DNA of 64,000 nucleotides from a virus (Duplodnaviria; Heunggongvirae; Uroviricota; Caudoviricetes). Shown piece after piece: positions 1,478-31,173 of the stretch. Position 1 is the stretch's first letter, and each line of letters begins with the position of its first letter. The translations under genes and the position numbers were made by a program. A model generated the notes under the pieces. The model saw only the letters and a list, made by a program, of their open reading frames with translations. It made no database searches and had not been told where the DNA came from. The stretch covers positions 23,474 through 87,473 of IMG/VR virus record IMGVR_UViG_3300013104_000019; one strand, 5' to 3'.

Positions 1478-2701
1478 ATGCAATTCATCGTCAGCAAGAT
1501 CCGCATCCCGCTCGGCGACGAGCACATGGTCACCAGTGTCAAGAGCGGCAACCTGCTCGAAATGACTCGGCATGAACCGGGTGCCAATCCGACCGACTCG
1601 ATCGCAGAGATCAAGCTCATCAAGACCGACATCGAAGGGCAAGTCGTCGATGCGTTCAAAGCGTCGACGCGCGAGATCGAACCGGCGACATTCGGCATGG
1701 GGATGTACAACCGCCTCACCGAAATCGATAACGCATCTTACGATGTCGAAAACGTACCGGCAGGTTACGCAATCGGCATGATCTTCTGGTCGACAGAAAC
1801 CGGCGACTATCAGCTGCGTCCGTCAATGATCGCACGCGGCAAAGACTGGCAAGCCATCATCGAAGTCACCCGTACGGCTTCCCAGTTGAAAGTCGAAGAG
1901 AGCGAAATCATCGACTGGGAGCGCATGTCGCGTGCTGACCGCATGGAGTTCGTGCTGCGCAAGTTCTCCGAGCTGCTCGACCAAGAGCCACTCACGAAAG
2001 ACGAAGCACTTCGTATTGCCACGCATCGTCACTACAAGGGCGGCCTCTATCGTGAACTCGGCAAGATTCGCAATGCCGACGACGGGAACGTCGCATCGCG
2101 CGTGCTCTACTTGCATCTGTTCCCGCACGAGAACAGTGCATGGCATCGTGACGCAGAAGAATTCCACGGCTTTCTCGATACCGGCACGCAGCGTTTTGCA
2201 CCGATCGAAGATACATTGCCGTTCATCCTGAATGACGACGGCTTGTCGACGGAAATCAAGGTCGTGCTGCGCCAACTCGACGACAAGCCCGAAACGGGTA
2301 AGGTCTTCTTCGGCGGCTCGGATGTCGACAAACATCTGACCGAACTGAACGAGCGCGCTCGCTCGGAACTGCTCATCGGTGAGTATGATCATCCCGAATA
2401 CGATCAAGCCGATGAGCGCCGCTGGTATGCGTTGCAGAACGATCGTGCGTGTTGCCGCTTCATGGGCTTCTCGGTGTCGGATGTCACGACGCTCAAGGGC
2501 AAACGTGTCAAGGCGCTGGTCGCGAAGGTGCAACCGTACGGTCCGTTGGCCATGGACTTCATGCAAGCCATGCGTACTTCGATGGTTGGCTTCGGCATGC
2601 GCGCCATGTGCATGGACACGGTCGAAGATCTGGGCGATGGCAAGCTCGTCAACTATCGAACGGTCGATAAGATCATCACGTTCGATTTCGTGAAGAAGTG
2701 A
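1478..2701 (+). CDS. hypothetical protein with central DUF1653-like motif
   Basis: 407-aa ORF. Segment HRHYKGGLYRELG...VLYLHLFPHENSAWHR resembles the DUF1653 signature (YRHYKG...VVY..LY...WVRP). Followed by GC hairpin at 2709-2730. Confidence 0.6.
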   Translation: MQFIVSKIRIPLGDEHMVTSVKSGNLLEMTRHEPGANPTDSIAEIKLIKTDIEGQVVDAFKASTREIEPATFGMGMYNRLTEIDNASYDVENVPAGYAIGMIFWSTETGDYQLRPSMIARGKDWQAIIEVTRTASQLKVEESEIIDWERMSRADRMEFVLRKFSELLDQEPLTKDEALRIATHRHYKGGLYRELGKIRNADDGNVASRVLYLHLFPHENSAWHRDAEEFHGFLDTGTQRFAPIEDTLPFILNDDGLSTEIKVVLRQLDDKPETGKVFFGGSDVDKHLTELNERARSELLIGEYDHPEYDQADERRWYALQNDRACCRFMGFSVSDVTTLKGKRVKALVAKVQPYGPLAMDFMQAMRTSMVGFGMRAMCMDTVEDLGDGKLVNYRTVDKIITFDFVKK

Positions 2702-3635: not shown

Positions 3636-4142
3636 ATGTCGATCTGGTCGGAAAGTAGATTGAAGTGGGAAATCGAGAATGGTCCGTTCTCGTATTTCAA
3701 AAAGTTCAAGGAGGAGCACGAGTCTCGCCTTAAGGAAGCGAAGACTACTGAAGATACCGAAGCATTGGAGCTTGCCAAAGACGCCATCGTGTCGATACCG
3801 GCACGTTACGTTTGCTGGAACAGCGACAACAACATGCCGATGGAACTGGATGGTCGATTGGTCAACAGATACGGTGACGGCCAATTCGTTTTCCGGTGTG
3901 ACTTTGCGTTGCCTACTCCGGCGACCAAGACATATGCAATGCTGTTCGGACTCGACGTCGTCTTCGTACCGTTCTTTGAGTCCGAATTCTGTCTTCTCGA
4001 TGTTCGTTCCTTCAGAGGCATCTTCGAGTGGATGACATCCAATGTTCCGGAAAACGAGAAAAGCTCGCTACCGGAACAACTGGAGAAGGAACTGCGTGCG
4101 TACCAACGTTACCTTTCATTCGAGGGCTATGACACGGAGTAA
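3636..4142 (+). CDS. hypothetical protein
   Basis: 168-aa ORF, strong RBS aaaggaggaagcaATG. Confidence 0.65.
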   Translation: MSIWSESRLKWEIENGPFSYFKKFKEEHESRLKEAKTTEDTEALELAKDAIVSIPARYVCWNSDNNMPMELDGRLVNRYGDGQFVFRCDFALPTPATKTYAMLFGLDVVFVPFFESEFCLLDVRSFRGIFEWMTSNVPENEKSSLPEQLEKELRAYQRYLSFEGYDTE

Positions 4143-4146
4143 CACC

Positions 4147-4518
4147 ATGGAAGAAGACGAGGTCAGAAGACCGACTCACGATCTGTTTTGTCGGCAGTGT
4201 ATCGCAGACAGTCCCAACACGCATGTATCGTGGTTTCTGATGGCCTCATTCGCGTACTACTTCCTGAACGAGTCCCTCATTACCGATGCGTTGTACGATG
4301 AGATTTACCAGTGGCTGGAGAAGAACATCGAACAAATCGATCACGTCCACAAACATCTCATCGAAAAGGACATGTTCTCAATTGGCAGTGCGTACTATCT
4401 GAGAGAATATCCGAAGATCATTCAGGTATCGACGCACAACTTGCTTGATAACTTGCGCTTAACAGCAGCACCGCAACCGAGAGATTTATGGAAAAGGAAA
4501 ACCTGCCCTACGCAGTAG
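4147..4518 (+). CDS. hypothetical protein
   Basis: ORF 4042..4518 trimmed to the ATG at residue 36 (MEEDEV), preceded by ggag. The upstream part overlaps the previous gene. Confidence 0.5.
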   Translation: MEEDEVRRPTHDLFCRQCIADSPNTHVSWFLMASFAYYFLNESLITDALYDEIYQWLEKNIEQIDHVHKHLIEKDMFSIGSAYYLREYPKIIQVSTHNLLDNLRLTAAPQPRDLWKRKTCPTQ

Positions 4519-4724
4519 TGCAGCGCTTGCGACTGGTTGACATCTTGCTCGACCAGCAGGGCTTTATCAATCGCGGAGTATTGATGGAATACTTCGGGAT
4601 TTCGATGCCAGCCGCAAGCAACGATCTCGGACTGTACAAAGAGATCGCTCCGAACAACATGACGTACGACTTGTCGAATAAGACGTACGTGAGAACCGAA
4701 ACCTTTCAACGGGTCTGGAAATGA
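4488..4724 (+). CDS. small hypothetical protein (78 aa), overlapping neighbours
   Basis: ORF with gagag 5 nt upstream. Overlaps the upstream gene by 31 nt and the downstream gene by 4 nt. Confidence 0.35.
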   Translation: MEKENLPYAVVQRLRLVDILLDQQGFINRGVLMEYFGISMPAASNDLGLYKEIAPNNMTYDLSNKTYVRTETFQRVWK

Positions 4725-5332
4725 AATTCATCTTCAACGATCGCAATCGAGCGATTTGCGATGTGTTCAGCCACGCATTGCAAGGTACTCTGCCCAATCT
4801 CGAAGTACGGCATTGCAACTTCGAAGCCATTTCGAAGGACGATTACAAGATCCTTTTTACCCCCGGTAATTCGTACGGACAGATGACCGGGGGTTTCGAT
4901 TTGGCAGTACGTAACGTCTGGCCGGCTGCTGAAGCCTATGTTCAAATGGCAATTAGCGAGTCCCGAAATGGGATGTTGGCGGTTGGTGATTACGTGATGG
5001 TTGGCTTGCATGCGGCTATGTCTTTGATTCCGCAAAAGCGCCTCATCTACGCGCCGACCATGCGCATCCCGATGGTGATTGCCGGTACGGAAAACGTCTA
5101 CTGGGCGTATCGCGCTGCCTTCCAAGCATTAGAAGGAGCGGCGCGCGGGATGATCTTCACTGATGAAGACGCTGTGCTCATCCCTGCTTTTGGGACGAGT
5201 GCCGGTCACATGGACCCGCTCAAAGCTGCGATGCAGTGCAGGCTGGCATACGAGCACGTCCATCGTCCGCCAGTCGAAGTAACGAGCCGGCAGATGTTTG
5301 CTGACCATCAAGCCATTGCTCAATGGGTTTAA
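4721..5332 (+). CDS. macro-domain-like (ADP-ribose binding/processing) protein
   Basis: Segment DDYKILFTPGNSYGQMTGGFDLAV parallels the macro-domain core D-h-IVNAAN..L.GGGGVDGAI (Asn, then a Gly-rich loop, then a hydrophobic A/V). This is a pattern-level call only. Confidence 0.4.
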   Translation: MKFIFNDRNRAICDVFSHALQGTLPNLEVRHCNFEAISKDDYKILFTPGNSYGQMTGGFDLAVRNVWPAAEAYVQMAISESRNGMLAVGDYVMVGLHAAMSLIPQKRLIYAPTMRIPMVIAGTENVYWAYRAAFQALEGAARGMIFTDEDAVLIPAFGTSAGHMDPLKAAMQCRLAYEHVHRPPVEVTSRQMFADHQAIAQWV

Positions 5333-5333
5333 G

Positions 5334-5651
5334 ATGAAAGCAGATCAAGTAAAAGACGCCATCGGGAAAACGGTTACTGTCAATGGTTTCCGTGATCTCG
5401 GAATCGACCCGGACATGCGCCGCATCATCGGTCAGGAATGTGTGGTCGTTAAGCAGTGTAAGAGCGGCCTTGTGCAGATCAAGCACGGCAAAAGCTTTTA
5501 CTCTGTTCCCCTTATCAATCTTGACTTGAAAATCACTGTAACGTTTGATGGTTGGAGTAAATGTGATTCGGGTATGGGGTGCGTAGAAACGGGCGTTTGC
5601 TATGCAATGGCGCATGGCGAACCGGATCAATGCGGCATGAAAAAGGAATAA
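5334..5651 (+). CDS. hypothetical Cys-containing protein
   Basis: ORF 5298..5651 trimmed to ATG (MKADQ) placed directly after the previous stop. Has CDSGMGC..C motif. Confidence 0.45.
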   Translation: MKADQVKDAIGKTVTVNGFRDLGIDPDMRRIIGQECVVVKQCKSGLVQIKHGKSFYSVPLINLDLKITVTFDGWSKCDSGMGCVETGVCYAMAHGEPDQCGMKKE

Positions 5652-5653
5652 AC

Positions 5654-6676
5654 ATGGAACAAAACTATCTGAATACGATACAAGATGTGCTGGATAATGG
5701 CACGTGGCAGAAGAACGAACGCACGGGGGAATTGTGCTGTACCCTCGACGGCGCGATGACGCGTTTTGACATCAGTCAAGCGTTCACGTGTGCGGTGACG
5801 ACGAAGAAGCTCGCGTGGAAGTCGATCACGGGTGAGTTCTGCGGCTTCCTGCGTGGTGTAACGAGCGCTGCTGACTTCCGCACACTCGGTTCGAAGGTGT
5901 GGGACCAGAACGCCAACGAGAACGCTCAGTGGCTCGCCAATGCCTTCCGTAAAGGCGAGGACGACCTGGGCGACGTGTATGGTGCGCAATGGCGGCGCTG
6001 GCCAGCCTATCGGGTTTTGGAATTGGGTGAACATGACAGTCCGAAGGCTAAGCAACTGGAAGCACAGGGTTGGAAACGCGAAGGTTGGGTTGATCCGACC
6101 GAAGGCTGGGGATTCTCCGGTATCCTCTATTCGAAAGAAATCGACCAACTCGGCGATTGCATTCGGAAGTTGATCCTGACGCCGTCGGATCGTCGGATTC
6201 TGTTCCACGGATGGAATCCGGCCAAGCTCGGAGAGATCGCACTGCCGGCCTGCCACCTACTGTACCAGTTCCTTCCCAACGTGGCGCGTCGCGAACTCTC
6301 GCTCGCCATCTACATCCGCAGCTGGGACACCTTCCTCGGCGGCCCGTTCAACATCGCGGAGGGTGGTCTGCTGCTCGAACTCGTCTCGCGTCTGACGGGT
6401 TTCAAGGCCAAGCGTGTGACGATCTTCTCGGGCGATACGCACGTCTACGAGAACCATCTGCCGATGGTGCAAGAGCAACTGAAGCGCGAACCGTTCGATT
6501 CGCCTCGTCTCGTGATCGATCGTTTCATTCCCACGTCGGAAGAAATGGCGTTGATCCGAGATCCGAATACGCGCGTCGATGTTGCTATCGATTACATCAA
6601 CAAGGTGGAGCCTTATCACTTCAAGCTGGATGGCTACATCCACCATCCGGAACTGAAAGCACCCATGGCGGTGTAG
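5654..6676 (+). CDS. thyA: thymidylate synthase
   Basis: Conserved ThyA blocks are present (WKSITGEFCGFLRG, HGWNPAKLGEIALPACHLLYQF with the catalytic Cys, FNIAEGGLLLE, GDTHVYENH). RBS aaaaggaataaacATG. 340 aa with insertions relative to E. coli ThyA. Confidence 0.9.
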   Translation: MEQNYLNTIQDVLDNGTWQKNERTGELCCTLDGAMTRFDISQAFTCAVTTKKLAWKSITGEFCGFLRGVTSAADFRTLGSKVWDQNANENAQWLANAFRKGEDDLGDVYGAQWRRWPAYRVLELGEHDSPKAKQLEAQGWKREGWVDPTEGWGFSGILYSKEIDQLGDCIRKLILTPSDRRILFHGWNPAKLGEIALPACHLLYQFLPNVARRELSLAIYIRSWDTFLGGPFNIAEGGLLLELVSRLTGFKAKRVTIFSGDTHVYENHLPMVQEQLKREPFDSPRLVIDRFIPTSEEMALIRDPNTRVDVAIDYINKVEPYHFKLDGYIHHPELKAPMAV

Positions 6677-7740: not shown

Positions 7741-8152
7741 ATCATTTTATCAACCACCAGCATGGTTTGAGGATAAGAAGCAATTACGGAGATTTGAAAT
7801 GCTGGCACATGACGAACACATTAAGCAGTGGACACAAGAGAAGTACCGAATTGCCTCTGTCGCGCTGGATGAGCCAGTGAGTCGGCCACCAGCCATGATG
7901 AAAGAAGGAGTCTATTACGATCTGATGGACTTCTGGATTGAACGCGCTCGCGTGCGGGCTTTGTTGTGGTCGCGTATGCGTGCGCAGAACTACGACGTCT
8001 ACATGGCAAACCTGAAGATCGCAGAAAGCCTTGAGTATCGGCAAGGCGAACACGGTCTGCTCGATCGACTGGCGATGTCGCATTTCCAGCGAATCTGGTT
8101 CACCGAGAATAATCCCAACGACATGATGGAAAAAATGAGGGTGATTCAATGA
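7736..8152 (+). CDS. hypothetical protein
   Basis: 138-aa ORF; start overlaps the terminator hairpin tail. Confidence 0.5.
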   Translation: MTSFYQPPAWFEDKKQLRRFEMLAHDEHIKQWTQEKYRIASVALDEPVSRPPAMMKEGVYYDLMDFWIERARVRALLWSRMRAQNYDVYMANLKIAESLEYRQGEHGLLDRLAMSHFQRIWFTENNPNDMMEKMRVIQ

Positions 8153-8679
8153 AGCATTACGAAATCAAGCCATACATGAATTACGCACGCAATCTGCAAG
8201 AGGGCAGCGTGCGCGAGAACGATAAAGGCATGATTCGCACCATTCTTGAGCGCAAGGGATGGCTCAAGCGCAAGCTCGGCCTGTGCGTCATGTACCCGAC
8301 GCTCACGGTTTCTAACCGCTACCCGAACCACGTGTTCTACTACGGTTATGCCCGCACGTTTATGTCGCTGTGCAACAGCACCTCGGAAGAGTACATTCTA
8401 GGCGTGGCAGCGTACGACGAAGCGTCGGGACTCGTGTGGTTCTCGTACCCGAAAGCTCGACACCACAATCTGTTGCACCTGATGGCTGAATACGGTTATT
8501 CGGAAGCACAGGTTGCCAATGTCAAGCAAGGCTTTCTGACAACGAAGGGTCGTTACGTCGATCGTGAGCAAGCTTTGGCTATTGCCAAAACAGCGAATCA
8601 GTTGATCAAGAAGACTGATCCGCCTCACAAACTCTTCTCGGAAGACCTCTTCACTGGTGGATTGACGCTCGTGAAGTAA
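8149..8679 (+). CDS. hypothetical protein
   Basis: 176-aa ORF, ATGA overlap with the upstream gene, RBS gagggtgattcaATG. Confidence 0.6.
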   Translation: MKHYEIKPYMNYARNLQEGSVRENDKGMIRTILERKGWLKRKLGLCVMYPTLTVSNRYPNHVFYYGYARTFMSLCNSTSEEYILGVAAYDEASGLVWFSYPKARHHNLLHLMAEYGYSEAQVANVKQGFLTTKGRYVDREQALAIAKTANQLIKKTDPPHKLFSEDLFTGGLTLVK

Positions 8680-9511: not shown

Positions 9512-9545
9512 GGAAGGGGACTTCGGTCCCCTTCTTTTTTTGTCG
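9512..9545 (+). terminator. intrinsic terminator
   Basis: ggaaggggacTTCGgtccccttc plus TTTTTTT. Confidence 0.8.
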
Positions 9546-9566: not shown

Positions 9567-9890
9567 ATGAACGGTCAACCCCTTCGCTCGGCAGCAAAGG
9601 AAGCAATCGAAAAAGAACTTCAAAACCTGAAGCGTCAAGCCATGTTGGCTGGTTTTCGTATCGACGGTTTCCTGATCGATCCGGTCGAAGATGCCGTGGC
9701 TGAGGAATCGATGTTGGTTGACGCGCGTCAGATTCTGGAAGACACGTTTCGCGACAACGTCGAGATGGCAGACATGCTCGGCTACAACGTGCGCGTGGAC
9801 CGCATCATCAACCCGTTGGATACGCACAAGCCGAAGATCGAAGTCGTGATCTGGGGTAAGCGTAATGCCGACGGGGGTTACGATGATTAA
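9567..9890 (+). CDS. hypothetical protein
   Basis: Track ORF runs through the terminator hairpin. Trimmed to MNGQPL after RBS aaaaggaaagaaATG. Confidence 0.55.
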   Translation: MNGQPLRSAAKEAIEKELQNLKRQAMLAGFRIDGFLIDPVEDAVAEESMLVDARQILEDTFRDNVEMADMLGYNVRVDRIINPLDTHKPKIEVVIWGKRNADGGYDD

Positions 9891-10257
9891 GATTCGGGAT
9901 TTCCAGCGGCGGGTGCTGGAATGGTTCGAAGCTTGCTTCAGCGCGCAGATGGCGAAAAAGAGAAAGCGTCGGCTTTACGCCTTCTTCGAGGAAGCCAACG
10001 AACTGATCCAATCCGGCGGCATGACGCGTGAAGAAGCGCATGCGATGGTTGACCATGTGTTCAACCGTGAACCGGGTGAATTCTCGCAAGAAGTCGCCGG
10101 AGTATTCACGACGCTGTGTATGGTGGCGAATTCCCACGACATCGATCTCGAAGAAGTCGGCGAGAAGGAACTCGCTCGGATATGGGAAGCTATTCCCATC
10201 ATTCAAGCCAAGCAGGCGCAGAAGCTGCGACCAAATGACGAGGATGAAGATGGTTGA
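9865..10257 (+). CDS. MazG-like nucleotide pyrophosphohydrolase (putative)
   Basis: Small all-helical protein with an EEANEL motif and a later acidic block, typical of phage MazG-like NTP-PPases. Alternative start at 9883. Confidence 0.45.
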   Translation: MPTGVTMIKIRDFQRRVLEWFEACFSAQMAKKRKRRLYAFFEEANELIQSGGMTREEAHAMVDHVFNREPGEFSQEVAGVFTTLCMVANSHDIDLEEVGEKELARIWEAIPIIQAKQAQKLRPNDEDEDG

Positions 10258-10474
10258 ACTCATTCAAGCCGAATTGCAAGTCGATGGCCGTGAAGGCATG
10301 CGGTGTTACTGTGTGTCGCTTCGCTGGAGCAGCGGCGTGAGCCATTCCATGGTGATCTTTGAGACCGAGTTTCCCAAAAAGGCGAAACAGATTCAAGACA
10401 TCATGGATGCAACAAAAGACATGACGGTGTCGCAGAGGTTGAAGTACATCGGAGAACGAATCAATAACGCATAA
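10250..10474 (+). CDS. small hypothetical protein (74 aa)
   Basis: ATG overlapping the upstream stop (MVELIQAELQ). Confidence 0.45.
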   Translation: MVELIQAELQVDGREGMRCYCVSLRWSSGVSHSMVIFETEFPKKAKQIQDIMDATKDMTVSQRLKYIGERINNA

Positions 10475-10483
10475 GGGGTTCAC

Positions 10484-10738
10484 ATGTGCGAACCGAAATT
10501 GCTGTTTTGTGGTAGCCGTACCGCAATCGGGGACTGTGGTGTCGAGGAGATTCACATCGAGTGCCGTTTTGCAGACGGTCAGAAACGTGCAGCTGTCAAA
10601 GTCGATGGTGAGTTCCCCGAACTCGCAACGATGATCGCCAAGTTCCTGAACGGCACTACTGGTATCCCGAACGATACCGCTCGCCGTCTTTTCAATCAAA
10701 TCGATACACGGAGCGATAATGACAACATTACCCGTTGA
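10484..10738 (+). CDS. small hypothetical protein (84 aa)
   Basis: RBS ataaggggttcacATG. Confidence 0.45.
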   Translation: MCEPKLLFCGSRTAIGDCGVEEIHIECRFADGQKRAAVKVDGEFPELATMIAKFLNGTTGIPNDTARRLFNQIDTRSDNDNITR

Positions 10739-11108
10739 AAACTATTCCCCGGAACGCGGAATCATGGAAGGTTTCAAGAAGATGAACTACGCGGTGATCG
10801 ACGACGACACCAAGCAGGCCGTCTACCCTGCATGGCAGTTCGTCGAGCCGGTTCCGGATATGATTCTGGAAGTCATGAAGCTGTTTCTCGTCAACGAAGC
10901 CGTTCATGCGAAAATGCACGGGTTTTTCGTGACACAGGAAGACAACTTGAACGAACTGTCTCCGGCCGAAGTTTTGGCCGGCAGGACCTTCCCCAAGCAA
11001 GAGCCGCTGCATGCCTCGCAGCTGCGCATCCTCAGTCTGCCGCCTGAAGAACGGCTGCGGCGGGTGCTGGAAGTCGCCAAGGACTACATCGCCGAAATCA
11101 CCCAATAA
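10719..11108 (+). CDS. hypothetical protein
   Basis: 129-aa ORF, RBS cacggagcgataATG, 20-nt overlap with the upstream gene. Confidence 0.5.
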   Translation: MTTLPVENYSPERGIMEGFKKMNYAVIDDDTKQAVYPAWQFVEPVPDMILEVMKLFLVNEAVHAKMHGFFVTQEDNLNELSPAEVLAGRTFPKQEPLHASQLRILSLPPEERLRRVLEVAKDYIAEITQ

Positions 11109-11118
11109 GGAGAATGAC

Positions 11119-11682
11119 ATGCGGGTAATCGGAAACGTAACTGCGTATTACTCGAAAGATGATTACCCCAGTCATCACTATCTCTGTAACTTCCGGGTGA
11201 AGACCGTGGACTTCACCTCGATGGAACAGATGATGATGTTCAGCAAGGCGATGCTCTTTGGTGACAAGGAAGCCGCGCACGAGATCATGTCCACGCAGAA
11301 CTGCCAAGCGCAGAAGATGATTGGACGGCGTGTCAAAGGTCTTAGGGGCGGGAAGTGGGACGATGAAGACAGGAAACTCTGGGACGAGAAGTGTGACCAG
11401 ATTGTCTTCATCGGTAATCGCGAGAAGTATCGTCAAAATCGTGTCTTGATCTCGTTGTTGCTTTTAACGGGTGACACCATTTTGGTGGAAGCTTCGAAGA
11501 AGGACGTAATCTGGGGATGTGGGTTGGATGAGCGAGACGACCGCATCGCTGATCCGAAGAACTGGACTGGCCAGAATCGTCATGGCCAAATCCAGATGCG
11601 CGTGAGGCAGTACTTCAGGGACCATCCGGAGGCGAAGAAGCTGGCTGATAATGCTGTGCTCTTTAACTTCGATAAGGATTAA
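11119..11682 (+). CDS. NADAR (YbiA-like, DUF1768) domain protein
   Basis: Trimmed to MRVIGN after RBS aaggagaatgacATG. Motifs GNVTAYYSKDDYPSHHYLCNF, EQMMMFSKAMLFGD, LLLTGDTILVEASKKDVIWGCGLDE match the NADAR fold signature (SNF..., EQ..QA.KA.F, LL.TG...LVEAS..D..WGxG). Confidence 0.7.
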   Translation: MRVIGNVTAYYSKDDYPSHHYLCNFRVKTVDFTSMEQMMMFSKAMLFGDKEAAHEIMSTQNCQAQKMIGRRVKGLRGGKWDDEDRKLWDEKCDQIVFIGNREKYRQNRVLISLLLLTGDTILVEASKKDVIWGCGLDERDDRIADPKNWTGQNRHGQIQMRVRQYFRDHPEAKKLADNAVLFNFDKD

Positions 11683-11684
11683 TC

Positions 11685-12197
11685 GTGCAACCCTGTAGCT
11701 GCGGTTATGTGAATTGCTCGGATAACGAGTATTGTGGTAAGTGCGGTCGTCCCTTCATCGAGAAGAAGACTCGCTACTATTGCAGGCAGTGCGCGTGTGA
11801 GCGCAAGCAGGCAGTGTGTCAAAAGTGTGGTGGCGAGTGTTTCACACCCTCGATCGATTGGGAAGAACCGAGGTTGCCTGACATCGACAAGATTCGCGCG
11901 CTTGCCAAAGAGATCGGCTACGCTATTGGCGTTCATGGCACGCTTGAGCGAGACTTGGATGTGATTGCGGCTCCGTGGACCGAAGAAGCACTCAAGTACA
12001 ACTGGCGTGAGGTGATGGACCATATCGCCAAAGGAATGAATGGACGAGTGGTGGAGGCCAGTTGGAAACCTTTGGGAAGACGGGCTTGCACAATTCTCAT
12101 CGACGGCTGGTACAAGGACATTGACTTGTCAGTCTGTCCGATCCTTATTCAGAAAGGAACACAAGAAGATGAAACATCTGGTGGTGTATCACAATAG
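11685..12197 (+). CDS. Cys-rich zinc-ribbon protein (GTG start)
   Basis: N-terminus CSCGYVNCSDNEYCGKCG...CRQCACERKQAVCQKCGGEC has four or more CxxC pairs. RBS aaggattaatcGTG. Confidence 0.5.
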   Translation: MQPCSCGYVNCSDNEYCGKCGRPFIEKKTRYYCRQCACERKQAVCQKCGGECFTPSIDWEEPRLPDIDKIRALAKEIGYAIGVHGTLERDLDVIAAPWTEEALKYNWREVMDHIAKGMNGRVVEASWKPLGRRACTILIDGWYKDIDLSVCPILIQKGTQEDETSGGVSQ

Positions 12198-13134
12198 CTG
12201 CATGGATGGTTTTGTGTCGGCGTGGATTGTTTATCATTCGCTGATTCGTCGGGGAGTTGTGGAGGACGACATCGAATTTCTCGGAGCGGACTACGGTGAT
12301 CCGATTCCGGACATGACGGGTAAGAACGTCTTTATCGTCGACTTCTCGTGGTACAACGTCGAGAGCTTTCTCAAGCAAGTTGAGAAAGCAGTCGAAGTGA
12401 AGATGCTCGATCACCACAAGGAAGCGTACAAAGTCTGGAAGGATGTCAAGCTTCCGGCCAACATGATCTATAAGCACGAATTGCCGCAATCGGGCGTCGG
12501 AGTTGTGTGGGATTATTTCCACCCGCACACTCATGCACAAATGCCGCCGATTCTTGCGCACATTCAGGATCGCGATTTGTGGAAGTTCAACATCAAAGGC
12601 TCGCGACAAATCCATGCATTCTTGAAGTCTAAGGGCTTCTTGCTGCGTGATACGGATCGGGACACTTTTTTAGCCAAGCTCAAAGAGTTCGGCGCTAACT
12701 ATGCGTGGCTATCTGTCGGTGCATTGCAACCGCTTTACACGATCGGCCAAGCGATCATGGATGCCGAGACGGTTTTGGTCTGCTCGATTCTGGAGCGCAA
12801 CAAGACCTATGCGGAATTCACCTGCTACGGACTGAAGGACGATGATTCGGGAGACATGGAACCGAAGAAACGCTATTTCGTTCCAGTAGCGGAAATGCCG
12901 CATGAACTGGCTGATGAAGCCGGCGACATCATGGGGCATGACGATCCGTTCTCGATTACTTACGAGACCAACTGGGCGTTGGGTAAGCGTCGTTTCTCGG
13001 TTCGTAGCCGTAAAGGATACGGAGTTGATGTCGGGGAAATTGCCAGAGCCATGGGTGGTGGTGGACACCAACATGCAGGTGGTTGGTACGACTCGATCTG
13101 GCTGGACTTTCCGTTCCGTATTACCCGCAAATGA
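12169..13134 (+). CDS. DHH/DHHA1-family phosphoesterase (NrnA/GdpP-like nanoRNase or cyclic-nucleotide phosphodiesterase)
   Basis: Trimmed to MKHLVVYHNSCMDG (DHH motif I H-N-x3-DG). Later MLDHHKEAYK (the DHH motif) and GGGGHQHAGGW (DHHA1 GGGH motif). RBS agaaaggaacacaagaagATG. Confidence 0.75.
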   Translation: MKHLVVYHNSCMDGFVSAWIVYHSLIRRGVVEDDIEFLGADYGDPIPDMTGKNVFIVDFSWYNVESFLKQVEKAVEVKMLDHHKEAYKVWKDVKLPANMIYKHELPQSGVGVVWDYFHPHTHAQMPPILAHIQDRDLWKFNIKGSRQIHAFLKSKGFLLRDTDRDTFLAKLKEFGANYAWLSVGALQPLYTIGQAIMDAETVLVCSILERNKTYAEFTCYGLKDDDSGDMEPKKRYFVPVAEMPHELADEAGDIMGHDDPFSITYETNWALGKRRFSVRSRKGYGVDVGEIARAMGGGGHQHAGGWYDSIWLDFPFRITRK

Positions 13135-13138
13135 GCAC

Positions 13139-13168
13139 GAGGAGGCTTCGGCCTCCTCTTTATGCCGT
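13139..13168 (+). terminator. intrinsic terminator with TTTATGCC tail
   Basis: gaggaggcTTCGgcctcctc then tttatgccg. Confidence 0.7.
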
Positions 13169-13211: not shown

Positions 13212-16106
13212 ATGACCAGTATTACTGATCAGACCGCTTTGATGGTCGCAGCCATCGAGGGGTTTAAGACTGTTCTGCCCGGTGCGCTTGCGGCTAAGGC
13301 TCAAGAAGCAGAACAAGCAGATGCGACCAATGAACTGCAAGGCCAAGACTTTCCGACCCTCTCCACCAGTCTGGATGCAGACCTCACCTCGCACGTCAAT
13401 AACCACAACAACCCGCACGGGGATACGGCTGATGCAGTCGGCACATATCGCACGACCGACGTCGATACGAAAGTGAAGGGGATCATCCCCAGTGCGAGCT
13501 TGCCGCTGTCGCGCTACGGTTCGCTCAGCTATTTGCCGCCCGGTGTGTCAGGTTCATTCGAAGGCGCGACGATGAATTTCGAATCGCGCCGGTATCCTGG
13601 CATTCTGGAAAACGACGGTACGTTCGTCTTTTTGCGCAACGGCACGACCGGCAGCGTGATGGGTGTCTATTACGCTTACGTGAAGAACGCATCGACCGGT
13701 ACACTGGCAACTCCGACTCGTACCAACGCACGATATCAGCCAGCGTACTTTCCGGCTAACACGACAGCGCGATATGTTTTCAAGTCGGATGGCAACTGTA
13801 TTCTGGGTCGTTTGCAAACTTCCGCAGGCGTGCTGGGTGATTACTTCATCTCGCTGACCAGCGGTACGTTTGATGCCACCAAGCATGTCGGTGCAATCAT
13901 TCCGGCTGCAAGTTTTCCGGCGCTGGCGAGTGGTTCGGTCAACATCGAAGCGTTCGTCGGAAACAGTAATCTGTATCTCGTAGTCACTGCTGATCCGACC
14001 AACAACGCCAATCCGGTGGATTTCCAGCTGTGGTCGATTCCGTTGTCTAGCATTCAGACAGCCAATGGCGGGAATGTTTCACCCACACAAATCACGGGTT
14101 GGACGACAACGGGTTTTGGTGGAACTTTCTCCGCTACGACAAATATCCGAGTGGCGAATAAGTTCGCATCGTCGACTGCTTTTGATTTGCCGATTGTTGT
14201 CTACGATACGACCACGTCTGCTGGTTTCGATTTGTTCGTGGATAACGATAACGACGTCAACACAGATTCGGCTCAAGACCCGTCTACGGGAAATATCCGA
14301 ATCCGTGTAACGGGGTCTTCGTTTAGCAACACGTACAGCTCTGGCAATACGCGTGTAGTTCCGATTGCTTTCTGGATCAATGTCAATCCGTCGGCTAAGA
14401 CGGCAACATTGGAAGGTCCTGCAACCACACCGGGTGCTGTGACGTATAGCGGCACCACTCAGGCGTATGAATTCAGCGGCGGAATGTTCCCCGGCACTGC
14501 AACTGGTTATCTCCCTGGTAATTATCAAGGAGGCGGTCCTACCTGGGTGTGGGCACCAAGTGGTTATTGGTTCGGTATCCGGGATTCCGATCCGCCTGAT
14601 TATGGCGCGAATGTTTATCGCGCTACGACCAATGCACTGTACGCGAATCGTTACGCAGCGTTGGCACCTTCGGCTGGTGTGAATTCCAATACGAACTCGG
14701 GCTTTACGCCGATGTACGGTTCGGCATTGGGTGGTCGGATGCTGGGGACATGGCCTCTGCCAGGCGGGTACATGATGGCAGCCAGTTATGGCCCGAAGCA
14801 AGACGGGTCGTATGAGTGGGGGCCGGTCCTCATTCAACCGGGTGCTTCGGGATATACGTACCAATCGCAATACAACGGTACGCTGTCGGGTTTTGCACCA
14901 TCGATCCTGCGCACTCGTGTGACAGACATGGGACTGAGCATCGATACTTTTACGGCATTGGTGTCTGAGATCTCGGCAGCTGGTGCAGTGACGACGAGTG
15001 GTGGTCGCTTCTTAGATGGTTATAACACCGTGGGTCCGGTGTCGGTCACAGTGTCAGGGAACGTTCTGCAATCCTCCGGTGCAGTTGTGATGCCGACCTC
15101 GGTACCCGCTAACTTGAAGGCCGCTGCATGGTCTTTGCTTGGCGTCGCTACTCCTCCCGCGTCGAACATCGAGATTATCATCCCGCAGAACACGGCGATT
15201 CCTCCCTTCGGTTTGTTGACTTGGACGGACTCAAGCAAGAGACTTTGGGTGTGCTTGCTGGAACTCTCGATCACGAGCGGTTCGCGTACTGGTACGATCA
15301 ACTCGATGAGTATCGTATCGAACTCGTCTGCTCAGCAGACCAACACGGGTACGACCATTCAGCCTGTGAATGCATCGATCCTCTACACGGGGGGTTCCTG
15401 CTGTATTTACGAAGGCAGTGATGCGTACTTCGTCGGGTTCCTTTCGAAGGTGTACCTCATCATTCCGGGTACGGGTGCTACGCACAACATCCGTTTCGCT
15501 ATTCCGAAATCGACTAATCGTCCTGACTGGTCGACACGGAATGTCCAAGTTCAAGGTGGCTCGTATAGCACCTCACACTACACGGGCTACCCAGGATTGG
15601 GGTTTGGTGAAACGGATCAGAATCCGACCAGTTCGGATAACTACACCAAAATCATCCTGAGGGCAAAGTGCACGACGCTCGCTCAGTACAACGCGTGGTC
15701 GACGATCGGGACGACGGTGTTGACTTCGCAGGATGTGGCGCAAGGTTGGCTCGTTTATTTCACTGACATCACGCCGGTGATCTTGAATGGCCAGTACTTG
15801 CAAATCCAACCTGCAACGTTCAATCTGACCAGCACCAAGACCAATCCCGCCAACAGCACGTTCTACGTGTATGTGACGGTGAATAACGGCGTGGCGTCGT
15901 ACGTAATTAGCGCAACCGCTCAGGCAGAAACCGCGAACAATATGTTTATCGGGACAATTGTCACAGGCGCAACGTCGATCACGTCGATCAACATGCAGAA
16001 GGTCAGTCGCATTGATAAGTATCGTCTGTCGACGACCTCCCAAGGTTCAGCTATCTCCGTGAGTTCGGGCACACCGAATGCGGCGGGTCATCTGAACTGG
16101 ACTTGA
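13212..16106 (+). CDS. tail fibre protein (long)
   Basis: 964 aa. N-terminus MTSITDQTALMVAAIEG...HVNNHNNPHGDTADAVGTY has the phage tail-fibre 'NPH' N-terminal domain. Long Gly/Thr/Ser/Asn-rich beta region. The C-terminal ~80 aa are homologous to the C-terminus of the next gene. Confidence 0.8.
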   Translation: MTSITDQTALMVAAIEGFKTVLPGALAAKAQEAEQADATNELQGQDFPTLSTSLDADLTSHVNNHNNPHGDTADAVGTYRTTDVDTKVKGIIPSASLPLSRYGSLSYLPPGVSGSFEGATMNFESRRYPGILENDGTFVFLRNGTTGSVMGVYYAYVKNASTGTLATPTRTNARYQPAYFPANTTARYVFKSDGNCILGRLQTSAGVLGDYFISLTSGTFDATKHVGAIIPAASFPALASGSVNIEAFVGNSNLYLVVTADPTNNANPVDFQLWSIPLSSIQTANGGNVSPTQITGWTTTGFGGTFSATTNIRVANKFASSTAFDLPIVVYDTTTSAGFDLFVDNDNDVNTDSAQDPSTGNIRIRVTGSSFSNTYSSGNTRVVPIAFWINVNPSAKTATLEGPATTPGAVTYSGTTQAYEFSGGMFPGTATGYLPGNYQGGGPTWVWAPSGYWFGIRDSDPPDYGANVYRATTNALYANRYAALAPSAGVNSNTNSGFTPMYGSALGGRMLGTWPLPGGYMMAASYGPKQDGSYEWGPVLIQPGASGYTYQSQYNGTLSGFAPSILRTRVTDMGLSIDTFTALVSEISAAGAVTTSGGRFLDGYNTVGPVSVTVSGNVLQSSGAVVMPTSVPANLKAAAWSLLGVATPPASNIEIIIPQNTAIPPFGLLTWTDSSKRLWVCLLELSITSGSRTGTINSMSIVSNSSAQQTNTGTTIQPVNASILYTGGSCCIYEGSDAYFVGFLSKVYLIIPGTGATHNIRFAIPKSTNRPDWSTRNVQVQGGSYSTSHYTGYPGLGFGETDQNPTSSDNYTKIILRAKCTTLAQYNAWSTIGTTVLTSQDVAQGWLVYFTDITPVILNGQYLQIQPATFNLTSTKTNPANSTFYVYVTVNNGVASYVISATAQAETANNMFIGTIVTGATSITSINMQKVSRIDKYRLSTTSQGSAISVSSGTPNAAGHLNWT

Positions 16107-16129
16107 TTCTTTTTCTGACAAGGTGGTTT

Positions 16130-16840
16130 ATGTCATCGATTTCTGATGCAGTCAGTGCGCTGAACACCTCGCTCAATGCGATGGTTCCCGCGCTGGCCAA
16201 TGCAGTGAACCGCAAAGTCGCACAGGCGGCCTTAGCTGACAATGCCTTGGCATTGAATGGTCAAAGCGCCACCCAGATGATCTCGACTGCGGCGGCTCAC
16301 ACCGACGCTCACGCAGCGCTCACGAACAACCCTCACCAAGTCACGTACGATGAAGTGGGGGCCTATTCGAAAGCATCGATCGATTCGTTGATCGCGTCTT
16401 TGATTCCGTCTGGTATCTTGCCGCTCAGCACGTTCGGCAAGGTCGACGGTTCTGCCATTCCGGTGTCGGTCACGGTCAACGGCAACACGTGCAGTGTATC
16501 GTTCTCAGCGAACATTCCTGCCATCATGGCAGGGCAGGCTTTCTCGCTCCCGGCACAGGTGCTGAACTACCCGTCGCCGAATGTGACGATGCTCATCTAC
16601 CTGCAACTGATAGGGGGTGTGCCGTCGTACATGTATTCGACTGTGGCTCAGCCGGAAACCTCGACTATGATGTATCTGGGTACGGTGACAACCAATGGTT
16701 CGGGTCAAGTGGTGCAAAACACCATCGGGCACGTGGTGCGTATCGACAATTACCGAATCTCCACGCTTTCCGCAGGTGGTGCGATTCCGGTCTCGGGGGG
16801 AACTCCCGATCAGACAGGGCAACACCTGCTCTGGCAATAA
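16130..16840 (+). CDS. tail fibre protein (short), paralogous C-terminal domain
   Basis: Trimmed to MSSISDAV. Has HAALTNNPHQVTYDEVGAY N-domain. C-terminus ...VVRIDNYRISTLSAGGAIPVSGGTPDQTGQHLLWQ aligns with ...VSRIDKYRLSTTSQGSAISVSSGTPNAAGHLNWT of 13212..16106. Confidence 0.7.
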   Translation: MSSISDAVSALNTSLNAMVPALANAVNRKVAQAALADNALALNGQSATQMISTAAAHTDAHAALTNNPHQVTYDEVGAYSKASIDSLIASLIPSGILPLSTFGKVDGSAIPVSVTVNGNTCSVSFSANIPAIMAGQAFSLPAQVLNYPSPNVTMLIYLQLIGGVPSYMYSTVAQPETSTMMYLGTVTTNGSGQVVQNTIGHVVRIDNYRISTLSAGGAIPVSGGTPDQTGQHLLWQ

Positions 16841-30339: not shown

Positions 30340-31173
30340 ATGAGCATCAAATCAGATCGCTGGATTCGGCGCATGTGTACGCCCCCGGATGGCACGTGGG
30401 GTATGGGTTACAGCAAGCTGCCGGTCAACAAAGTCGGCGAGCAATATGTGGTCCGCGAAAACGGACTGCCGCTCATCATGTGCAATCCCAACATGCGGGT
30501 CGAAGACTGTGAAGAGTTCACGCCGTACACGGATGAACAGAAAGCGCAGTTCAAGCCGATGATCGAGCCGTTCGAAGCCGGCCAGGTGAAGGTAAAGCAT
30601 CGGTATATTCATCCGGATCTACCGACGTGGAAAGCTGATCTGGAACTGGCGACTCAGCAACGCGGATGCGGACCGGATGTCGATGGTGACACCGTGTTGG
30701 AAAAGATCGTGTCCTACGGTACCTCTTCCTACGGCTACGATCTGCGCTGCTCGAACAAGTTCAAGATCTTCACCAACATCAACTCCACGGTGATCGATCC
30801 GAAGAACTTCGACGAGAAGAGCTTCGTGGACTTCGAAGGCGACGTCTGCATCATCCCGCCGAATTCGTTTGCGCTCGCATCCAGCGTCGAGTATTTCCGC
30901 ATTCCGCGTGACGTGCTGACGGTGTGCTTGGGTAAGTCGACCTACGCGCGCTGCGGCATCATCGTGAACGTCACACCCTTCGAGCCGGAATGGGAAGGCT
31001 ACGTCACGCTGGAATTCTCCAACACGACGCCGTTGCCGGCGAAGATCTACGCCAACGAAGGTGTCGCGCAAGTACTCTTCTTCCAAGGCGATGAAGTGTG
31101 CGAGACGTCGTACAAGGATCGCGCTGGCAAGTACATGAACCAATCTGCGGAACCGATTCCGCCGAGGACGTAA
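30340..31173 (+). CDS. dcd: dCTP deaminase (dUTPase-fold) with ~90-aa insertion
   Basis: [12 protein letters not shown] aligns with Dcd [26 protein letters not shown] aligns with [43 protein letters not shown] aligns with [33 protein letters not shown]. An extra segment sits between the first two blocks. Confidence 0.8.

Follow-up and report, generated by a model that had tools for sequence, protein, structure and literature searches.

Phage NADAR proteins that have been tested, AdfN (T4 gp30.3), NADAR-Bas32 and NADAR-Bas60, all remove the ADP-ribose that DarT1 attaches to guanine and rescue phage growth (PMC11257639), and guanosine ADP-ribosylated RNA is also a NADAR substrate (PMC11833690). 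Cellular NADARs, including E. coli YbiA (PMC11543638, PMC11125620), are also among the closest known systems. For stand-alone DHH/DHHA1 phosphoesterases, the comparison set consists of NrnA/NrnB nanoRNases and pAp phosphatases, TmPDE, PggH, the catalytic domain of GdpP, DhhP, the archaeal MAD ring nuclease, the type III CRISPR NrN and the viral DHH phosphodiesterases of a 2026 preprint (bioRxiv 10.64898/2026.07.21.739742). The action of phage DHH proteins on immune signals, offered as a new idea in the initial annotation of the locus studied here, goes back to a 2021 prediction by Iyer et al. for jumbo phages (PMC7824862); the 2026 preprint describes a mimivirus DHH enzyme that degrades 3'3'-cGAMP and other messengers, and a screen of viral DHH enzymes in which cGAMP signalling was blocked by only two of those tested. 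The MazG superfamily is represented by E. coli MazG, the T4 gp56 dCTPase/dUTPase, cyanophage MazG and phage Atd1, and the nucleotidyltransferases (NTases) by MNT/MntA antitoxins, ANT(2'')/Lnu antibiotic NTases, MenT toxins, phage MNT-like NTases (Ho et al. 2022) and bifunctional NTase-plus-hydrolase enzymes (Rel/SpoT, GlnD, CCA-adding enzymes with an HD domain). According to a 2022 preprint, the cyclic dinucleotides that phage minimal NTases make act as competitors, and Atd1, a MazG-like protein encoded nearby, depletes ppGpp (bioRxiv 10.1101/2022.06.09.495361).

A candidate accessory operon and its NADAR gene

The window, a stretch of 64,000 nucleotides, contains all four genes that the initial annotation had listed, on the + strand and at or close to where it placed them. 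The region from about 9567 to 13134 appears to be a single co-transcribed accessory operon of an uncultivated jumbo phage of ~245 kb, as suggested by two terminator hairpins (9512-9535 and 13139-13158) that flank eight genes, all on the same strand and with overlapping or tightly spaced starts and stops (Table 1). The upstream hairpin folds at -18.3 kcal/mol (z -4.15), and 0 of 200 shuffles fold equally well. The downstream one (-17.8 kcal/mol, z -2.1) has a weak T-tail and is absent from the list of the terminator scan that found the first; it is probably the end of the unit. Start assignment was revised for several genes: the MazG-like gene probably begins at 9883 rather than 9865, with an ATG that overlaps the stop of the preceding gene, and it ends 862 nt upstream of the NADAR gene; a longer NADAR reading frame from 11011 was rejected, and a DHH frame from 12040 was considered overextended. 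Searches with the smaller proteins gave no match in Pfam (107 aa), in Pfam and PHROG profiles (74 aa) or, for the family profile of the 129-aa protein, among solved structures; homologues of the 107-aa and 129-aa proteins are fused in contig L005.

Table 1. Features of the candidate operon (window coordinates)
Feature	Position	Strand	Basis or remark
Intrinsic terminator-like hairpin, 5' of operon	9512..9545	+	10-bp stem, UUCG loop, U7 tail; terminator scan
Gene 1 of unit, 107 aa	9567..9890	+	start inferred from L004 homologue
MazG-like (remote), all-alpha pyrophosphohydrolase-like, 124 aa (130 aa if start 9865)	9883..10257	+	phrog_14118, phrog_8593
74-aa protein	10250..10474	+	ATG overlaps MazG-like stop (ATGgtTGA)
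84-aa protein	10484..10738	+	
129-aa protein	10719..11108	+	
NADAR (YbiA-like subfamily), predicted ADP-ribosyl N-glycohydrolase, 187 aa	11119..11682	+	Pfam NADAR, TIGR02464
Zinc ribbon(s) plus minimal Pol-beta-type NTase domain, 170 aa	11685..12197	+	GTG start
Stand-alone DHH/DHHA1 phosphoesterase, 321 aa	12169..13134	+	Pfam, phrog_4771, AlphaFold, Foldseek; 29-nt overlap with preceding gene
Hairpin directly 3' of DHH stop	13139..13158	+	8-bp GC-rich stem, UUCG loop, UUUAU tail

The NADAR call of the initial annotation was borne out, and from its sequence the gene can be firmly assigned: the Pfam model PF08719 matches with an E-value of 3e-36 and 125.5 bits (cutoff 35.1), TIGR02464 matches with 118.6 bits (cutoff 73.7), and the alignment to the solved NADARs 8bau and 2b3w keeps the catalytic residues Glu36 and Lys43. 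A single-sequence search against solved NADARs yields only 24-30 bits. Family membership, these residues and the published tests on other phage NADARs indicate that the protein is most likely an orphan DarG1-like enzyme, which would reverse DarT1-type modification by detaching ADP-ribose from guanine at the N-glycosidic bond, in phage DNA or else in RNA. Within the operon, a solid anti-defence precedent exists for NADAR only.

A putative nucleotide-processing trio

The remaining three enzymes probably form a functionally coupled trio, which would handle mono- and oligonucleotides. Our tentative reading is a mixed operon, in which NADAR acts against DarT-type DNA ADP-ribosylation beside a nucleotide-processing NTase, MazG-like protein and DHH enzyme, the trio being somewhat more likely to supply or clean the nucleotide pool than to destroy host immune signals.

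Among the four genes the MazG-like one is the weak point, its assignment being a remote match. The protein belongs with phrog_14118 and phrog_8593 (E 3e-34) and reaches Pfam PRA-PH, MazG and MazG-like only at E 0.04-0.12; three of 12 family members match phrog_9236 and phrog_715 'pyrophosphatase' (E 2e-3 to 5e-3), among solved structures the family profile picks up the pyrophosphatases 4qgp and 2q73 (E 0.07-0.4), and hhalign gave no match to E. coli MazG or T4 gp56. Residues E42, E43, E46, E76 and E102 are invariant, the second motif is ExxG rather than ExxD, and catalytic competence appears uncertain because the last canonical acidic ligand is missing. The initial annotation had proposed removal of alarmones; the neighbours of the family in other phages point instead to work on dNTP pools, with thymidylate synthase, dNMP kinase and ribonucleotide reductase adjoining it in CcrBL9-like phages, dCMP deaminase and Pol I in Rhizobium phages, and, in Tunturi_5, a fusion to a deoxyribosyltransferase-like domain beside a dNMP kinase. 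The protein would hydrolyse (d)NTPs to (d)NMP and pyrophosphate. One plausible role is the conversion of dUTP or dCTP to the monophosphate, feeding the phage thymidylate synthase (5579-6676) downstream of its dCTP deaminase-like protein (30340-31173), both encoded in the window.

The next member had been described as a multi-CxxC zinc-ribbon protein. The ribbon is present, with one invariant four-Cys set (C33, C36, C45, C48) and additional N-terminal CxxC pairs in close relatives only, but the description under-read the protein, whose C-terminal NTase domain, fused to MazG-like domains in relatives, had been missed. This domain, which matches no model in Pfam, NCBIfam or PADLOC, is predicted to move a nucleotidyl group onto a substrate; an NTase has no obvious part in pool metabolism, which counts against the pool reading.

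The DHH/DHHA1 call also held, firmly, on modelled fold and motifs. Both Pfam scores lie slightly below threshold (DHH, 27.9 bits against 28.1; DHHA1, 17.9 against 25.9), phrog_4771 'DHH phosphoesterase' matches at E 1e-61, and the AlphaFold model (pLDDT 95) retrieves NrnA, GdpP, TmPDE, PAP phosphatase and RecJ with a Foldseek probability of 1.0. The motifs are H8-x2-C11-x-D13-G14, D58, D81-H82-H83, D134/D136, R279-S280 and G297-G-G299-H300. The fold is about equally close to nanoRNases, pAp phosphatases and dinucleotide phosphodiesterases and shows no preference for cyclic substrates. At 80 other viral DHH loci, the neighbours are dNMP kinase (11 loci), HD nucleotidase-like (8 loci), methylase and replication genes, with Pol I and primase, or RNase H, also found near the family. 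The enzyme would release 5'-NMPs from short oligonucleotides or from 3'-phosphorylated nucleotides.

The coupling of the trio is indicated by gene fusions and repeated co-location. NTase and MazG-like domains are fused in this order in L005, L007 and P0121-P0124, independently in P0150, and in reverse order in P0143, and a Dyella marensis prophage encodes a 492-aa fusion of DHH and MazG-like domains. The otherwise unrelated contig L015 has only the NTase (48%) and DHH (31%) genes in common with the window; they are separated by 4 kb, and the MazG position is taken by a Nudix gene. Together with the start/stop overlaps and the terminators flanking the unit, these fusions and this co-location make it very unlikely that the four genes are independent neighbours through shared descent in one jumbo-phage lineage. 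That explanation draws on the restriction of the four-gene grouping to one or two related jumbo lineages, whose syntenic members with the full grouping also share T4_Y16D upstream and a 964-aa fibre gene downstream, and on the single occurrence of the genes at most other loci (76 of 80 for MazG, 78 of 80 for DHH and 12 of 14 for NTase).

Alternative roles for the operon

The initial annotation had proposed a dedicated counter-defence toolkit. In the version weighed here, NADAR would reverse DarT ADP-ribosylation or cleave ADPR-derived signals, the NTase would make competitor nucleotides or tag a nucleotide, the MazG-like protein would strip 5'-tri- or pyrophosphates from alarmones or linear pppN intermediates, and DHH would break signalling oligonucleotides, cyclic or linear, down to NMPs. 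The proposal is partly supported: for NADAR it has good precedent, and the catalytic residues are conserved; for DHH, neither fold nor the 80-locus context provides specific evidence on immune signals. Seven related contigs, with DHH identities as low as 38%, repeat the layout of NADAR followed by variable genes and then DHH, and the differing gene content of the interval (L009 and L010 have other genes there) is a pattern typical of accessory or anti-defence hotspots. Outside the window's jumbo lineage, the neighbours of the NTase include anti-Thoeris genes (Tad2-like and Tad3-like), Nudix and NADAR. In all, it accompanies NADAR in two jumbo lineages, adjoining it in FLC9-like phages; in another lineage a Tad2-like gene (E 6e-20) and a Tad3 gene (E 2e-28) are found at 1-3 kb from it (L105, L108, L110), with a Tad3-like cluster also nearby in L104. 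A macro-domain gene 6 kb upstream in the window and the literature on DHH enzymes, phage NTases and Atd1 fit as well. We nevertheless consider the toolkit unlikely as a whole: the MazG-like and DHH families mostly occur in other phages amid dNTP-metabolism and replication genes, few viral DHH enzymes blocked cGAMP signalling in the 2026 screen, the NTase lacks the signature of cyclic-dinucleotide-making phage NTases, and Atd1 is not among the tblastn matches of the MazG-like protein.

A set for nucleic-acid end processing, restoring damaged phage or host RNA or DNA, seems less probable still. Here DHH would trim or dephosphorylate 3' ends, the MazG-like protein (Nudix in other phages) would turn 5'-triphosphate ends into monophosphates, the NTase would re-add 3' nucleotides, for example at tRNA ends, and NADAR would strip ADP-ribose from bases, in line with the activity of other NADARs on RNA. 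An RNA ligase gene lies directly upstream of DHH in L015, in the same string as the NTase and Nudix genes, and adjoins the MazG-like gene in Brevundimonas phage Marchewka; in CcrBL9 an NTase and an RNA ligase are near it, and the window has a stand-alone NAD-ligase Ia-like domain upstream in addition to the macro-domain gene. These contexts are few and come from scattered lineages, however, a scan of about half of the window ORFs turned up neither an RNA ligase nor a polynucleotide kinase, and anticodon-nuclease damage leaves 5'-OH ends, which require a kinase rather than a pyrophosphatase.

Comparison with known systems

The window DHH protein shares with the known stand-alone enzymes the two-lobe DHH plus DHHA1 fold, a length of ~320 aa with no extra domains, and invariant motifs II-IV, RS and GGGH; a long ordered helix (residues 184-211) between the lobes resembles viral groups 4 and 5 of the 2026 preprint. 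It differs in its motif I, HxxCxDG, in which the first Asp of DxD has given way to a nearly invariant Cys, and in its identity of at most 12-16% to any solved structure; unlike MAD it has no membrane anchor, and unlike NrN no CRISPR association. The MazG-like protein, at ~120 aa and predicted from sequence to be helical, resembles all-alpha NTP pyrophosphohydrolases, with the EExxE motif and later Glu of the MazG superfamily and, as for gp56, family genes beside dNTP-metabolism genes; however, it reaches no curated family threshold, and ExxG replaces ExxD. Its adjacency or fusion to a phage NTase is as reported for Atd1, which has no detectable homology to it.

The catalytic signature of minimal Pol-beta-type NTases, hG[ST] ... 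DxD ... D, is present in the NTase and falls on the expected strands, and the fusion of its relatives to a metal-dependent hydrolase domain of the all-alpha type is reminiscent of the synthetase-plus-hydrolase architecture. Unlike known minimal NTases, it has an N-terminal zinc ribbon, no HEPN partner and a very short G-to-DxD spacing (HG[ST]LERDLD), and it lacks the GS-x-AY..SDxD motif of the phage NTases that make cyclic dinucleotides. NADAR has the same domain as AdfN, NADAR-Bas32 and NADAR-Bas60, above curated thresholds and with both catalytic residues conserved, and is an orphan phage gene like AdfN, with no toxin found among the neighbours scanned. It shares 38% identity with the NADARs of Vequintavirinae, to which the tested Bas60 phage belongs, and falls in the YbiA-like (TIGR02464) branch, outside the T4 AdfN cluster. 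Unlike AdfN and the Bas NADARs, it sits in an operon with three nucleotide enzymes.

Gene assignments in a predicted operon

Eight plus-strand genes (9567-13134) are flanked by two UUCG-loop hairpins, and several neighbours overlap or nearly abut, as seen at the junctions ATGATTAA (position 9883), ATGgtTGA (10250) and TAAtcGTG (11685) and in the gene overlaps of 20 nt at 10719 and 29 nt at 12169; given this arrangement, co-transcription of the eight genes is likely. Coordinates are collected in the table below. Within the unit, an Xre/MbcA-type antitoxin domain considered for the 129-aa protein was dropped, as neither Pfam nor a profile search of solved structures supported it. In the related locus L005, homologues of the 107-aa and 129-aa proteins are fused into a single protein; the window has the MazG-like gene plus two small genes between the two.

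Coordinates of the features discussed, in the window unless another locus is named
Feature	Location	Strand	Remarks
phiKZ-type S80 prohead protease	1478-2701	+	
Match to NAD+-binding Ia domain of NAD-dependent DNA ligase	4042-4518	+	about 60 residues; PF22745 E 8e-6, just below cutoff
Macro-domain protein	4721-5332	+	203 aa; NCBIfam 'ADP-ribose-binding protein' E 3e-5; Pfam Macro_2 E 2e-4
Thymidylate synthase, long	5579-6676	+	365 aa
T4_Y16D family (PF26092) homologue	8149-8679	+	
Terminator hairpin, strong	9512-9535		UUCG loop; followed by U7 tail
107-aa protein	9567-9890	+	
MazG-like protein (putative)	probably 9883-10257	+	
129-aa protein	10719-11108	+	
NADAR protein	11119-11682	+	187 aa
Zinc-ribbon nucleotidyltransferase (predicted)	11685-12197	+	
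DHH/DHHA1 protein	12169-13134	+	321 aa
DHH motif I	12190-12210	+	residues 8-14
Hairpin, weaker	13139-13158		UUCG loop
Fibre-like protein	13212-16106	+	964 aa
Protein following the fibre-like protein	16103-16840	+	245 aa
YadA-type stalk and membrane-anchor protein	18523-20256	+	577 aa; E 5e-16
dCTP deaminase-like protein	30340-31173	+	
SPFH/Band 7 domain protein	31586-32497	+	E 3e-26
Fused homologue of the 107-aa and 129-aa proteins	L005 3386-4120		244 aa
Protein with C-terminal NADAR	L038 7388-8425		346 aa
Tad2-like protein, anti-Thoeris	L105 6407-6910; also L108, L110		PF11195 E 6e-20; 1-3 kb downstream of nucleotidyltransferase homologue
Tad3 protein, anti-Thoeris	L105 8343-9017; also L108, L110		PF25185 E 2e-28; 1-3 kb downstream of nucleotidyltransferase homologue
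DHH-MazG-like fusion ORF	L081 5989-7464		L200, NZ_FONH01000002.1 365028-372503

The initial annotation had read the MazG-like, NADAR, zinc-ribbon and DHH/DHHA1 genes as a counter-defence toolkit, and its NADAR call was borne out above curated thresholds, with 125.5 bits against Pfam PF08719 (cutoff 35.1, E 3e-36) and 118.6 bits against TIGR02464 (cutoff 73.7), the latter assigning the protein to the YbiA-like branch. It can be aligned with the solved NADARs 8bau and 2b3w and keeps the catalytic Glu36 and Lys43, seven residues apart (S-M-E36-Q-M-M-M-F-S-K43); mutation of the matching residues inactivates AdfN, the NADAR of phage T4 (PMC11257639). An anti-DarT1 role of phage NADARs is established, and the Vequintavirinae, to whose NADARs the window protein is 38% identical, include Bas60, whose NADAR counters DarTG1 (PMC11257639). 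By analogy with three tested phage NADARs, the window protein may act as an AdfN-type anti-DarT1 factor, removing ADP-ribose from guanine in DNA and rescuing the phage from DarTG1.

The protein described initially as a zinc ribbon does carry one conserved four-Cys ribbon, but this is followed by a domain of about 95 residues that had been overlooked, with an invariant HG[ST]LERDLD and a later D147. These residues form a Pol-beta signature (H84-G85-[ST], D90-x-D92 and D147, all invariant), and the catalytic residues sit on strands 91-97 and 146-150 of a predicted model that has the fold of the Pol-beta nucleotidyltransferase superfamily; a viral structure library returned Pol X, poly(A)-polymerase and CCA-nucleotidyltransferase hits. 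From motifs and model, we conclude that this is a putative minimal nucleotidyltransferase (NTase) of the Pol-beta type, the active site of which is apparently intact.

Among the gene calls, the MazG-like identity is the weakest. Several independent hits are all to MazG-clan pyrophosphatases, and all are marginal: Pfam PRA-PH, MazG and MazG-like models matched, among the family, the window protein only, at E 0.036-0.12, phrog_715 and phrog_9236 each matched three of the 12 family members at E 2e-3 to 5e-3, and the family profile matched the solved structure 4qgp at E 0.07. Comparison of the profile with E. coli MazG and T4 gp56 (hhalign) gave no signal (probability below 1%), and the twin motifs are not the canonical ExxE and ExxD. 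The first is present as an invariant E42-E43-x-x-E46, whereas the second reads E76-x-x-G79 with an invariant Gly, so that, of the canonical acidic ligands, three out of four are kept. A word-indexed homology search with the protein found only five close relatives.

The DHH/DHHA1 protein fell narrowly short of the Pfam gathering scores (DHH 27.9, cutoff 28.1; DHHA1 17.9, cutoff 25.9), but family, motifs and fold all agree with the original assignment. It matched phrog_4771 at E 1e-61, and its family comprises more than 1,900 homologues, named 'NrnB/cAMP/cGMP phosphodiesterase' by JGI, many of which carry precomputed PF01368 or PF02272 hits. The predicted model (pLDDT 95) has a two-lobe fold, and the best 43 chains listed by Foldseek, each at probability 1.0, are all DHH/DHHA1 enzymes. 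Across 70 homologues, motifs II (D58), III (D81-H82-H83) and IV (D134/D136) and the DHHA1 motif (G297-G-G299-H300) are invariant. The sole exception among the catalytic motifs is motif I, H8-x-x-C11-x-D13-G14, which we take, on the pattern of the RecJ and NrnB motifs, to correspond to the canonical DxDG: D13 is invariant, and Cys, at least 90% conserved, stands in place of the first Asp. This Cys-for-Asp replacement may alter metal preference. The fold does not separate nanoRNase, pAp phosphatase, dinucleotide and cyclic-dinucleotide phosphodiesterase relatives, all of which are 12-16% identical.

For the NTase, MazG-like and DHH proteins, single-sequence searches of solved structures returned nothing useful and NCBIfam and PADLOC models gave no match; none of the three reached a Pfam curated threshold, and the NTase had no Pfam hit at all.

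The phage and its other genes

The region had no megablast match among 50,697 phage records, which marks this as a new phage. By its proteins it belongs with the jumbo phages: it encodes an S80 prohead protease, its fibre-like protein shows about 31% identity to proteins of Erwinia, Xanthomonas and Escherichia phages of 270-370 kb, and copies of window genes, 80-100% identical, occur on metagenomic contigs of 243-245 kb. The genes are tightly packed on the plus strand. The fibre-like protein and the 245-aa protein that follows it have N-terminal (about 30% identity) and C-terminal (about 39%) segments in common, which suggests paralogous fibre modules. The YadA-type domains of the 577-aa protein are typical of trimeric autotransporter adhesins and unusual for a phage, and an SPFH/Band 7 domain protein is also encoded.

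The window further encodes a thymidylate synthase, a dCTP deaminase-like protein, a macro-domain protein and a ligase Ia-like domain, which stands alone, without the ligase body. With the MazG-like protein added, the first two would make up a full pathway leading from dCTP via dUTP and dUMP to dTMP. Relatives have an interruption in the thymidylate synthase gene, a GIY-YIG endonuclease in L005 and an intein in L011. The macro-domain protein, whose gene is the second one for ADP-ribose handling and lies 6 kb upstream of NADAR, shares 41% identity with a protein of phage FLC9 and about 31% with the macro proteins of Gifsy-1 and SEN4/SEN5. Its candidacy as an orthologue of AdfM was dropped, since its match in PhiPA3 is gp271 and not AdfM gp108.

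Gene order, fusions and neighbourhoods

The order NADAR, one to three genes, DHH is kept down to 38% DHH identity in seven related loci (L004, L005, L007, L009, L011, L018 and L099), with ATGA translational-coupling overlaps ahead of the DHH gene; L010, at 37% DHH identity, has the DHH gene and lacks NADAR. The intervening genes vary: L005 and L007 encode NTase and MazG-like domains in one 267-281-aa protein, L011 reads NADAR, MazG-like, DHH, and unrelated genes fill the slot in L009 and L010. A T4_Y16D homologue is the conserved left anchor of this variable region in every related locus; the family assignment comes from precomputed hits on relatives, the Pfam scan of the window protein falling short of E 1e-3.

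Searching 1.8 billion representative proteins with a combined NTase and MazG-like profile gave 9,015 cluster representatives, the best 150 of which include another NTase-MazG fusion (P0150) and one with the reverse domain order, MazG then NTase (P0143). The extra regions of ten long proteins with NTase or MazG-like domains contained no Pfam domain. A prophage in the isolate genome of Dyella marensis UNC178MFTsu3.1 encodes a 492-aa ORF joining DHH/DHHA1 (residues 7-268) to a MazG-like domain (363-472). Finally, L015, with the gene string topoisomerase, NTase, Nudix, RNA ligase, DHH, has only the NTase and DHH genes in common with the whole window. We argue from these independent fusions and the L015 co-location that the NTase, MazG-like and DHH enzymes probably cooperate, with the putative pyrophosphatase as hub; that the genes are merely syntenic, with no functional link, appears highly improbable.

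The wider context of the families is mixed. In a search of 80 DHH and 80 MazG loci, co-location of all four genes was not found outside the lineage: the 80 DHH loci (IMG/VR) contained no NTase, one MazG and one NADAR, and NADAR and NTase accompanied MazG in only four loci, all FLC9-like contigs. The single NADAR lies 0.6 kb downstream of the DHH gene on L038, an unrelated 42-kb viral contig. Frequent neighbours of DHH in the 80 loci were DUF2303 (18), C5 methylase (14), dNMP kinase (11), SNF2 helicase (8) and HD nucleotidase-like genes (8); Pol I with primase, and RNase H, are further neighbours in isolated phages. The MazG-like gene directly follows thymidylate synthase in nine Bertelyvirus-type records, near dNMP kinase and ribonucleotide reductase, adjoins dCMP deaminase and Pol I in Rhizobium phages and RNA ligase in a Brevundimonas phage, and is fused to a deoxyribosyltransferase-like domain in Tunturi_5. 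The NTase adjoins NADAR in FLC9-like 310-kb phages, lies near Nudix genes in two lineages, and occurs 1-3 kb from Tad2-like and Tad3 genes in a lineage of 300-kb contigs and near a Tad3-like gene in L104, where a Tad3-like cluster is found. Nucleic-acid end repair, as the common task of these enzymes, seems quite unlikely to us.

Interpretation and relation to known systems

What the analysis shows are gene identities, folds, motifs, fusions and contexts; every substrate and phenotype proposed here is inferred. Our preferred reading, a tentative one, is a mixed operon in which NADAR would keep phage nucleic acid clear of guanine ADP-ribosylation and the coupled trio would process nucleotides; it is the dNTP-metabolism contexts that make pool supply and cleaning the likelier task of the trio. 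The toolkit first proposed, dedicated to countering signals and alarmones, is rather doubtful, and the context of the DHH gene does not point specifically to hydrolysis of cyclic-nucleotide immune signals. It is similarly unlikely, and slightly more so, that NTase, MazG-like and DHH enzymes form a phage module, hitherto undescribed, that rewrites or destroys host nucleotide or NAD/ADP-ribose-derived immune messengers by making, trimming and cleaving them. Its case draws on the fusions that tie the enzymes together, on the recurrence of NADAR, Tad2-like, Tad3-like and Nudix genes beside the NTase, and on NADAR next to a DHH gene in one unrelated contig; if true, it would amount to counter-defence by a new enzymatic strategy, unlike the known sponges and the 2H and MBL nucleases.

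NADAR would extend the orphan-antitoxin strategy against DNA ADP-ribosylation to a further phage lineage, jumbo phages of soil and rhizosphere. Of greater use is the connection found among three abundant, unannotated phage protein families, whose fusions offer a concrete three-enzyme set for joint biochemistry.

Parts of this picture have precedents. Iyer et al. 2021 (PMC7824862) had predicted two roles: cyclic-nucleotide signals would be countered by DHH phosphodiesterases of jumbo phages, and unmodified NTPs would be degraded by MazG-like enzymes. Whether phage DHH proteins act as nucleases for recycling or destroy immune signals is a question that dates from 2021 and was only partly addressed by a July 2026 preprint (bioRxiv 10.64898/2026.07.21.739742), a survey of viral DHH enzymes in which a mimivirus enzyme degraded several messengers, 3'3'-cGAMP among them, and signalling in cells was blocked by one phage enzyme. 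The DHH fold is unlike the 2H, MBL and DUF1874 enzymes of the Acb1, Apyc1 and AcrIII-1 functional class. In a 2022 preprint (Ho et al., bioRxiv 10.1101/2022.06.09.495361), phage minimal NTases are reported to produce cyclic dinucleotides that act as competitors, and Atd1, a MazG-like protein encoded next to an NTase, to deplete ppGpp. The window NTase and MazG-like families are not detectably the same as those. The MNT-like NTases of Ho et al. carry GS-x-AY[GAN]T-x4-SDxD and NP-x-h2[DE] motifs, whereas the window NTase family lacks them and reads HG[ST]LERDLD. Taken singly, the components add members to kinds already known; new variations are the fusion-linked triad, the zinc-ribbon NTase family, which is unannotated, and the DHH variant with Cys for Asp.
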